Assembly (NCBI GenBank): GCA_031520405.1
Contig: GCA_031520405.1_4842.1
Strand: one strand, 5' to 3'
Length of the DNA stretch: 64,000 bases
Source of the DNA: a phage
Position numbers and translations under genes: made by a program. Below, piece by piece: positions 5,449 through 5,694 of this stretch (position 1 is the first letter of the stretch; each line of letters opens with the position of its first letter). The notes beneath the pieces are model-generated. The model was given only the letters and a program-made list of their open reading frames with translations. It ran no database searches and had not been told where the DNA came from.

Positions 5449-5598
5449 GAGTGCGTCGGGAATCGAACCCGAAATCGTCAGGACGTTGAAAGCTATTTGC
5501 ATTTCACTTGCATATCCTGCGACTTTCTTAACTTCCTTAACCCCAGATTGTTATGAAGTCGGCATGCACACCTTCTTCATCTTCAGGAAGTCACACTC
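5449..5598 (-). ncRNA. tRNA-like stable-RNA candidate (about 150 nt): acceptor-like stem plus T-arm, no anticodon arm found
   Basis: T-arm TCGGG/AATCGAA/CCCGA at 5456-5472 (plus strand view); 7-nt acceptor-like pairing 5449-5455 with 5592-5598 including one G-U. Confidence 0.3.
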
Positions 5599-5609
5599 AT
5601 TATTCTGAT

Positions 5610-5694
5610 TGCTTCAACTGGATTCGAACCAGTGACCTCAGGCACCTTGTTCTCTCGAAACTTTCCTGCGCTCTACCACTCGAGCTATGAAGCA
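5610..5694 (-). ncRNA. tRNA-like element (85 nt): perfect 7-bp acceptor stem, canonical D-arm and T-arm, but no canonical anticodon stem; possible tRNA pseudogene or noncanonical tRNA
   Basis: acceptor TGCTTCA/TGAAGCA, D-arm GCTC..GAGC, T-arm ACTGG-TTCGAAT-CCAGT; exhaustive 5-bp/7-nt-loop search of the 36-nt middle segment found no anticodon arm. Confidence 0.35.

Follow-up and report, generated by a model that had tools for sequence, protein, structure and literature searches.

Two conserved, probably non-decoding small RNA genes framed by tRNA acceptor stems and T arms at the end of a Kuttervirus tRNA operon

The species 1 and species 2 RNAs of phage T4 appear, by analogy, to be the closest described counterparts of the two RNAs reported here. 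Their genes, rnaC for species 1 (139 nt) and rnaD for species 2 (119 nt), close the T4 tRNA cluster and specify stable RNAs that are not tRNAs; a 2010 review of T4 still listed their role as unknown. In the rnaC RNA a weak terminal stem encloses two long arms, and there is a canonical T arm (CCGGG-UUCGAAU-CCCGG); the rnaD RNA has no T arm. Another point of comparison is the tRNA-like domain of tmRNA, which consists of an acceptor stem and a T arm without an anticodon arm. Mycobacteriophage DS6A encodes a tmRNA remnant reduced to this domain, for which inhibition of trans-translation through titration of SmpB was suggested, an action by competition rather than by decoding (PMC4131195). YrlA RNA, the tRNA-like structures at viral 3' ends and mascRNA are likewise partial imitations of tRNA that do not decode. 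In a review of natural tRNAs of non-canonical shape, the anticodon arm is described as conserved in size; in the passages searched, 8 nt is the largest loop and no long-armed case is mentioned. Phage tRNA clusters are usually seen as aids to codon usage and lately also as an answer to tRNA-cleaving immunity. Here we describe a cluster of another composition, in which a substantial part of the operon is made up of conserved RNAs unable to decode.

We analyzed a 64,000-nt stretch of phage DNA (hereafter the window; GenBank assembly GCA_031520405.1, contig GCA_031520405.1_4842.1) that is ~99% identical to Kuttervirus (Ackermannviridae) phages, including Salmonella phages moki, GG32 and SFP10. The 3' end of the phage tRNA operon, on the minus strand, contains the two elements of interest, A (5609–5694) and B (5449–5598). 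On the same strand are tRNA-Met (7018–6943) and tRNA-Asn (6529–6454), both detected by ARAGORN and by Rfam at the gathering threshold, and tRNA-Ser(GCU) (5698–5786; ARAGORN and Rfam), which lies directly 5' of A and ends in GCCA followed by the spacer AAU. This layout of NCCA ends and AAU(U) spacers recurs between the units of the operon. We read an intrinsic terminator-like hairpin with a U tract at 5362–5384 (minus strand), 65 nt past B, as the close of the operon; it carries a terminator annotation in phages Maynard and Menlow. The T-loop word GGTTCRANTCC was found nine times in the window, always on the minus strand, against an expectation of 0.25, and none of 100 shuffled sequences reached nine. 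A decayed tRNA with a 38-nt internal deletion lies 5' of tRNA-Ser, at ~5790–5850, and retains only its 5' portion and its 3' acceptor strand; the intact tRNA is present in Agtrevirus-type loci. The operon has far more noncoding sequence than A and B together: further RNAs with an acceptor stem, a T arm and a long insert were seen at 6452–6316, 8336–8211 and 8815–8745, and ~460 nt of conserved CCA-ended modules lie between 6315 and 5851.

Element A is 86 nt long and, as judged by Rfam, minimum free energy (MFE) folding and alignment, has a tRNA-Ile-type body with a different module, M, in place of the anticodon arm. Read along the minus strand, its order is UGCUUCA-UA-GCUC-GAGUGGUA-GAGC-G-CAGG-(22 nt)-CCUG-AGGUC-ACUGG-UUCGAAU-CCAGU-UGAAGCA-A, the last base being the discriminator (A at 5609), after which comes UCA at 5606–5608. 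An initial annotation of this DNA, made from the sequence alone, had described the 7-bp acceptor stem as perfect and the T arm as canonical. Both were recovered: UGCUUCA (5688–5694) pairs with UGAAGCA (5610–5616) in the covariance-model alignment, and the T arm ACUGG-UUCGAAU-CCAGU (5617–5633) was identified by the same alignment and by the T-loop word scan. A canonical D arm had also been claimed. The arm itself is present (GCUC-GAGUGGUA-GAGC, 5670–5685; covariance-model alignment, folding and alignment with tRNA-Ile), but in the window copy its loop has a G (or C) where A14 is expected. Scoring against covariance models, which had been proposed as a check, gave a full-length match of A to the Rfam tRNA model (RF00005) of 48.7 bits with permissive filters (gathering score 29, E = 7.5e-9), and tRNA was the sole family of Rfam 15 to match. 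Of the features that the model describes, A has the 7-bp acceptor stem, the D arm and the T arm with a UUCRANY loop, and it lacks the 5-bp anticodon stem with a 7-nt loop (U33, anticodon, purine 37). As the initial annotation had noticed, no such stem exists; CAGG and CCUG stand in its place, separated by 22 nt where the model expects 9. The MFE fold was a cloverleaf with an elongated third arm. ARAGORN in its default mode did not call A, and automatic annotation mislabels it, its homologues in sister phages being entered in GenBank as ‘tRNA-OTHER’, ‘Undet-NNN’ or ‘tRNA-Pro’. Many of these sister phages have A-CCA at the 3' end, whereas the window copy has A-UCA. The two changes in the window copy, C74U and A14G, hint at a relaxed constraint on tRNA-likeness in this lineage.

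A canonical 76-nt tRNA-Ile(GAU) takes the slot of element A in Matapan, in ECML-4 and in CRW-SP2, a phage of the Aglimvirinae. When A was aligned with the tRNA-Ile(GAU) of Matapan and CRW-SP2, the two agreed in the acceptor and D stems, variable loop, T arm and discriminator, and the difference was confined to positions 27–43, the anticodon arm. The arm was therefore exchanged at the stem boundaries, such that positions 27–43 of a tRNA-Ile(GAU) body have given way to a 30-nt GNRA-capped hairpin, module M. Element A is in this respect a natural case of a tRNA serving as the scaffold of a different RNA module. An engineered counterpart is the tRNA scaffold for RNA expression in E. coli, reportedly devised by Ponchon and Dardel in 2007, in which the RNA of interest replaces the anticodon arm. 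Element A matches that design, having an intact acceptor/D/T frame and a foreign hairpin grafted at 27–43, but it differs in being natural and phage-encoded, and in that its graft is conserved and is also borne by a second scaffold that is not a tRNA. The distribution of A is patchy: phages SP1 and dinky and several IMG/VR genomes carry B with no more than a stub of A, and L029–L031 lack A.

As defined from homologues and folds, module M reads CAGG-AAA-G-U-UUC-GAGA-GAA-C-AAGGUG-CCUG in the window (5639–5668, minus strand), and its consensus is CAGG-ARA-G-Y-UUC-GNRA-GAA-C-AAGGUG-CCUG, comprising an outer 4-bp stem, an internal loop and a short hairpin with a GNRA tetraloop. It was found with few changes in Kuttervirus, Agtrevirus-type loci, the viral contig L203, Shigella phage pSb-1 and lambdoid prophages, although this invariance is partly imposed, since most copies were retrieved by patterns that fix most of M. 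The tetraloop varied in all copies within GNRA (GAGA, GGAA, GAAA, GGGA), with GGAA in the Agtrevirus-type loci and GAAA in L203. The inner part could fold in two ways, as UUC-GNRA-GAA with a bulged pyrimidine or as GYUU/AGGU, and because the stems of M are almost invariant, covariation does not discriminate between them. In pSb-1, an N4-like phage (Schitoviridae), M sits on a tRNA-like gene that scored 54 bits on the tRNA model; 5 of the 7 acceptor pairs of this gene are changed on both sides relative to A with pairing retained, and ARAGORN found no canonical tRNA in the 12.5 kb around it.

The lambdoid copies of M are placed on a different frame. A 36-nt M query matched 107 of 5426 complete E. 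coli genomes, once per genome and inside lambdoid prophages, and a pattern scan for M across one genome per bacterial species gave no match. In these prophages M forms the third arm of a cloverleaf that is not a tRNA. The closing stem of this cloverleaf covaries, being GUUGUGGUG/CACCACAAC or GGAUUGGAUG/CAUCCAAUC, and its arms are, in order, a hairpin GCGCA-GGCUGA-UGCGC, M, and a hairpin GCCGG-AGAUCAGCA-CCGGC; the UCAGC in the loop of the last hairpin is complementary to the GCUGA in the loop of the first, which would allow a kissing-loop interaction. The same scaffold with other arms was seen in Klebsiella phage T765 and in phage P1, there after tRNA-Asn and tRNA-Thr, and no family in Rfam 15 matched the lambdoid cloverleaf. 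Within temperate phages M lies in leader RNAs, either between pL and an N-like gene or between qut and a holin gene. Judged from these sequence contexts, M is a reused module and not debris. It moves between virulent and temperate phages, and so offers a defined 30-nt sequence that could be used as bait for a partner.

We compared M and the lambdoid cloverleaf with several described RNAs and rejected each identity. Mimicry of the 23S sarcin-ricin loop or of domain IV of 4.5S RNA was dismissed on two grounds: the tetraloop is variable within GNRA, and the E. coli copies matched by the 36-nt M query are found in prophages only, with none in the core chromosome. A lambda-type boxB was dismissed on the single copy per prophage; in L021 a boxA-like sequence and a hairpin, both distinct from the cloverleaf, are found ahead of it. 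The put RNA of HK022 is a two-stem, V-shaped RNA, which does not agree with the cloverleaf. The C4 RNA of P1 was set aside in that the cloverleaf had no Rfam match and its P1 copy is located after the two tRNA genes. A search within the window for an antisense target of M returned none beyond chance.

Element B is a 150-nt tRNA-framed RNA with a four-way junction, delimited by its homologues and by covariation, and is followed by UCCCA at 5444–5448. For this interval the initial annotation had described a T arm and a 7-bp acceptor-like pairing, with one G-U, around about 135 nt. Our reading agrees: the acceptor strands GAGUGUG (5592–5598) and CGCACUC (5449–5455), supported by sequence and covariation, pair with one U·G and enclose 136 nt, and the T arm is UCGGG-UUCGAUU-CCCGA (5456–5472; covariation and T-loop word). 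The remaining arms are arm I (5532–5590, 59 nt; RNAalifold and covariation), in which an invariant CUUCCU/AGGAAG stem surrounds a covarying hairpin with the loop GUGCAU, and arm II (5475–5522, 48 nt; covariation), in which a covarying stem surrounds the invariant GUGAAAUGCAAAUAGCUUUC. The MFE fold of B had these four helical parts (acceptor, arm I, arm II and T arm) meeting at the junction, with a free energy of −47.9 kcal/mol (z = −3.2).

BLAST detected homologues of B in Kuttervirus, in Taipeivirus (Klebsiella phages) and in Agtrevirus-type phages, and a pattern scan of viral contigs yielded genuine copies in Ackermannviridae-like contigs only. The RNAalifold consensus of 12 distinct homologues from three Ackermannviridae groups had 39 pairs. 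Compensatory changes were observed in 15 of them, which belong to the acceptor and T stems, the inner hairpins of arm I and the stem of arm II. In this consensus 95.9% of cells were paired, compared with 44–49% when partners were slid; the slid controls gave 2–3 covarying pairs as opposed to 15, and the observed covariation score was reached by none of 500 shuffles. Acceptor columns 4:150 changed from U-A to C-G in 5 of the 12 sequences, and columns 3:151 were G-C in all except CRW-SP2 (11/12), which has G-U. Helix 5, in arm II, had compensatory changes in 6 of its 7 pairs, and 2 of the 5 T-arm pairs covaried. A covariance model built from the B sequences recovered a divergent homologue (L040:3401–3547, 39 bits) in which UCUCC/GGAGA replaces CUUCC/GGAAG, a stem that is invariant in all other copies. 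Conservation ran from the first acceptor base to a few bases past the last.

The proposed covariance-model check had a different outcome for B than for A, in that RF00005 gave no match to B at E ≤ 10. No family of Rfam 15 matched B, the tmRNA model aligning to the T arm alone (10.6 bits). There was also no conserved reading frame across the homologue alignment, in which an indel in Matapan shifts the sole short frame. The GUGCAU loop could kiss AUGCAA/C, a pairing that would compete with the local hairpin and that showed no covariation. Phage Maynard has A and lacks B. In the sister-phage GenBank records examined, B is either without annotation or lies under a ‘hypothetical protein’.

Set beside the T4 RNAs, B has the architecture of rnaC, with a T arm and a terminal stem around long arms and a position at the end of a tRNA cluster, and it may be regarded as the Ackermannviridae analogue of the species 1 RNA. 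Homology between the two was rejected: the B covariance model had no match at rnaC (L023:1909–2047), and its sole match in T4 (14.7 bits, L023:2174–2301) was the tRNA-Arg gene. Element A is unlike rnaD, and nothing in T4 corresponds to its arm-swapped tRNA body. A and B both resemble the tRNA-like domain of tmRNA in having an acceptor stem and a T arm without an anticodon arm, and they are phage-encoded like the DS6A remnant, but they differ from that domain in lacking G3·U70; in addition, A has a full D arm, and the inserts of B are unrelated to tmRNA by covariance model. YrlA has its ends in a Ro-binding stem and its acceptor-like stem closed, whereas the ends of A and B are at the acceptor stem. 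Text searches of the literature by sequence, tag peptide and keyword returned no description of A or B.

We concluded that A and B are probably selectively maintained, non-decoding small RNA genes framed by a tRNA acceptor stem and T arm. Their features exceed chance, as seen in the excess of T-loop words, the z-score of the B fold and the conservation of both elements in related phages. Because the acceptor stem and T arm are kept and other folded modules replace the anticodon, A and B probably mature like tRNAs and cannot read codons. The initial annotation had offered two readings, processing substrates that are not decoding tRNAs or decayed tRNA genes. Conservation, compensatory changes, the exact arm swap and the recurrence of the same arm on unrelated scaffolds favor the former.

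The latter, in which A and B are decaying pseudogenes and tRNA-like by inertia, is very unlikely. It would account for an operon in flux, where a tRNA with a 38-nt internal deletion is found at ~5790–5850, for the absence of A and of B from some relatives, and for C74U and A14G in the window copy of A. That deleted tRNA is, however, the real remnant here, and decay is unsupported for the two elements themselves. B has kept its 39 pairs in different genera, with compensatory changes at 15, and the arm of A is a defined module, common to unrelated phages and prophages, that was inserted exactly at the stem boundaries; the M-bearing element of pSb-1 has no canonical tRNA called by ARAGORN in its vicinity. 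Free divergence in related phages had been named in advance as evidence against a non-decoding function, and A and B were instead conserved there. A call by a tRNA finder of a canonical cloverleaf with an anticodon had been named likewise. In the trivial sense such a call exists, as ARAGORN in its intron mode returns A as tRNA-Pro(AGG) with a 15-nt intron, and one GenBank record names an A homologue tRNA-Pro. A canonical cloverleaf was still not recovered, because the loop implied by ARAGORN, AAAGGUG, has A33 and U37 and because the Agtrevirus copies are returned as ‘tRNA-???’ with a 2-base anticodon (one record has ‘Undet-NNN’). Removal of 13–15 nt never yields U33 together with purine 37, the loops obtained being AAAGGUG, CAAGGUG and AAAGUUG; there is no bulge-helix-bulge, as the central 4-bp helix would need GYUU to pair with the 3' strand GGUG, which it cannot; and the body of A is that of tRNA-Ile, not tRNA-Pro. 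Bacteria are not known to have machinery for short protein-spliced tRNA introns. Given the non-canonical loops after excision and the missing bulge-helix-bulge, we rejected a decoding, intron-bearing A as extremely improbable.

Other explanations grant the two RNAs a role and place it elsewhere. It is possible, if doubtful, that A and B act as decoys or inhibitors of host immunity that targets tRNAs (the anticodon nucleases PrrC and RloC, PARIS, Septu, or the effector of retron-Eco7). Phage tRNAs are known counter-measures of this kind (PMC13096335), A offers a tRNA body with no anticodon loop to cut, and patchy presence in close relatives fits an accessory counter-defense gene, but the occurrence of M in leader RNAs of temperate phages (pL/N-like, qut/holin) is unexpected for a simple decoy. 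We consider it unlikely that B, and perhaps A by way of M, targets trans-translation as a message-less tmRNA-like domain competing for SmpB, EF-Tu or stalled ribosomes. Consistent with this idea, a tmRNA-like tag module (ANDNTFLAVA followed by two stops) lies in the same operon, the lambdoid-phage M is in a cloverleaf ~160–190 nt downstream of such a tag, and the DS6A remnant with only a tRNA-like domain was proposed to titrate SmpB (PMC4131195). An 11-nt word, GUGCAUGCCGA, is also common to B and the PK1 region of E. coli tmRNA; this match was equalled by 62 of 2000 shuffles and is not significant, and we rejected a derivation of B from tmRNA for that reason. Moreover, B has G3-C70 rather than G3·U70, tmRNA models match its T arm alone, and it has no conserved reading frame, nor a resume codon and conserved tag frame with a stop. 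Finally, A and B could be cis-acting processing or ‘punctuation’ signals, or transcript stabilizers, with no function as free RNAs. The recurrence of NCCA and AAUU between units throughout the operon and the placement of a related cloverleaf in lambdoid mRNA leaders would agree with such a role. A minimal acceptor/T minihelix would suffice for it, however, the role would leave unexplained why B and M have long internal segments of invariant sequence, and there is no unit between B and the terminator to punctuate, all of which makes this account quite unlikely.

Under our preferred reading of A and B as non-decoding small RNA genes, their tRNA frame would serve to release them. In bacterial tRNA maturation, RNase P cuts 5' of the acceptor stem and exonucleases trim to the CCA, and the ‘top half’ formed by the acceptor stem and T arm is the part recognized by RNase P and the CCA-adding enzyme. 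Because the top half is recognized by processing enzymes, and given the NCCA/AAU(U) layout of the operon, we propose that this frame is what allows A and B to be excised and stabilized. They would be co-transcribed with the tRNAs as one operon ending at the 5384–5362 terminator, RNase P would cut their 5' ends, and 3' exonucleases or the CCA-adding enzyme would finish their 3' ends, releasing presumably stable RNAs of ~86 nt (A) and ~150 nt (B). Element A would be an L-shaped natural ‘tRNA scaffold’ displaying M at its anticodon end, and in B two larger structured arms take the place of the D and anticodon arms. Through these substituted arms A and B may act in trans, binding a factor that normally handles tRNA or tmRNA, or competing for it, as a decoy or sponge would, and not as translation adaptors. 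Both elements are accessory, each being absent from some relatives and tRNA-Ile occupying the slot of A in Matapan. Natural knock-outs and natural replacements exist among sequenced relatives and, together with the exact arm swap and the mobile module, make the function of A and B directly testable.

A wider reading, which we regard as improbable, is that several enterobacterial phage families have in common a tool-kit of tRNA and tmRNA mimics that reprograms ribosome rescue or neutralizes tRNA-targeting immunity. Its modules may include tRNA bodies or the kissing-loop cloverleaf with interchangeable arms like M, acceptor/T-arm RNAs with long inserts like B, and the tmRNA-like tag. If this were true, M might allow an RNA shaped like a tRNA to engage with the ribosomal A site, or with an enzyme that binds tRNA, in the absence of codon-anticodon reading.

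The tag module of this operon was recorded as a separate observation. Its frame at 8562–8527 reads GCU AAU GAU AAC ACG UUC CUG GCA GUA GCU UAA UAG, encoding ANDNTFLAVA and two stops, and is preceded by AAAAAUAAUC, which resembles the sequence ahead of the resume codon in E. coli tmRNA. A hairpin loop contains the stop codons, a pseudoknot-like element comes next, and a local tRNA-like unit with a CCA end lies downstream (8434–8339). Scores of the tag modules on the Rfam tmRNA model were below threshold (14–26 bits), and none of the acceptor stems that were read has G3·U70, for which reasons we treat the module as a lead and not as a demonstration. A 2014 census of tmRNA placed phage ssrA in mycobacteriophages and Bacillus phage G only, and our literature search for the tag peptides found no paper containing them. 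By sequence, tmRNA-like tag modules of this type appear to be widespread in enterobacterial phages. The module was found in 660 phage records, and among the matches listed none annotates an RNA gene. DNA similarity also placed it in FelixO1-like, N4-like and T1/Webervirus-like phages. Homologous modules in Ackermannviridae loci and in lambdoid phages and prophages encode the tags ANDDVVLMAA, ANEEMYLAVA, ANDNAYLAVA and ANDDQFLAVA. With the exception of three ANDNAYLAVA copies, the loci examined had a T-loop motif or an M-bearing cloverleaf 150–197 nt after the tag.

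On the minus strand of the window, a conserved block at about 8448–8616 contained a tmRNA-like message module (8527–8562), whose tag reading frame, GCU AAU GAU AAC ACG UUC CUG GCA GUA GCU UAA UAG, encodes ANDNTFLAVA followed by two stop codons. This tag is identical to the E. coli tag ANDENYALAA in its length and its start. The stop codons were placed in the loop of a hairpin, and a pseudoknot-like element came after them. Scores against the Rfam tmRNA models were only 14–21 bits, which is under threshold, and ARAGORN called no tmRNA. Ackermannviridae loci, HK620, and HK620-like prophages carried homologues with different 10-residue tags. 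Judged by DNA similarity, 660 phage records contained the module, among them those of FelixO1-like, N4-like, and T1/Webervirus-like phages; none of the phage records listed annotated it as an RNA gene.

A local tRNA-like unit was located 3′ of the tag module (8339–8434, minus strand). It combined GGAG/CUCC and the stem CGUGUAC/GUACAUG with a T arm (GAAGG-UUCGAGU-CCUUC) followed by CUCCAAU-C-CCA, and its fold gave z = −2.6. The unit lacked G3·U70. Three further minus-strand elements, none of them called by the tRNA finders, paired an acceptor-like stem with a T-arm-like hairpin. The element at 8211–8336 had a 3′ end of U-CCA and a long-armed cloverleaf fold, and that at 8745–8815 was tRNA-sized with a U3·G70 pair. 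The element at 6316–6452 was conserved in locus L042, and its T stem showed a compensatory change (G-C to A-U). The T-loop word GGTTCGATTCC occurred for a ninth time at 2103–2113 (minus strand), within a 149-aa minus-strand ORF (2028–2477); this copy may be a coincidence or an embedded tRNA-like element.

Also on the minus strand, a conserved block of ~460 nt (5851–6315) showed 76–92% identity between Ackermannviridae genera. It contained no convincing ORF and gave no match in Rfam. The block was composed of modules ending in NCCA plus AAU(U): one example is UGGGUG...CGCCCA-CCA, and another is a hairpin whose stem has 13 bp, with ACCA after it; in sister phages, a tRNA-Tyr was inserted between the modules. 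Adjoining tRNA-Ser was a tRNA gene remnant (5790–5850, minus strand; GCGGGAG...CUCCCGC-U-CCA). Compared with the intact copy in loci L047, L041, and SKML-39, it had lost 38 nt, and the T arm was part of this loss. This remnant is a true decayed tRNA. Upstream of tRNA-Met, AACUUUGAUGGCUCUGG ... CCAGAGCCAUCAAAGUU formed a long and nearly perfect inverted repeat (7329–7428, both strands). An Rfam match suggesting a microRNA at this site was spurious, caused by the inverted repeat.

The cloverleaf scaffold is an undescribed structure present in many enterobacterial phages, with copies at L022:3980–4075, L021:3975–4075, L228:1501–1611 (HK620), L226:2495–2600 (T765), and L227:1505–1645 (P1). It consisted of a closing stem, the hairpin GCGCA-GGCUGA-UGCGC, a variable arm that was either the 30-nt GNRA-capped hairpin module (M) or another sequence, and the hairpin GCCGG-AGAUCAGCA-CCGGC. 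The loops of the two hairpins were mutually complementary (GCUGA/UCAGC), and a covarying stem, GGUAAGAGCAUU...GAGUGCUCUUUCC, often lay 5′ of the scaffold. In L021 the scaffold had on one side a pL-like promoter accompanied by a boxA-like sequence and on the other an N-like antiterminator gene; in HK620 it was found between qut and the late terminator.

Other motifs were observed near M-bearing elements. In Shigella phage pSb-1 (L007:900–1000), where ARAGORN found no tRNA in the surrounding region, the tRNA-like gene with M was preceded by two more T-arm-like motifs, GGGGUUCGAUUCCCU and GGUGGUUCGAUUCCAUC. In a 46-kb viral contig (L013:4307–4368, minus strand), a hammerhead type III match of 30.5 bits, below the gathering score of 48.5, lay about 180 nt upstream of an M-bearing cloverleaf.
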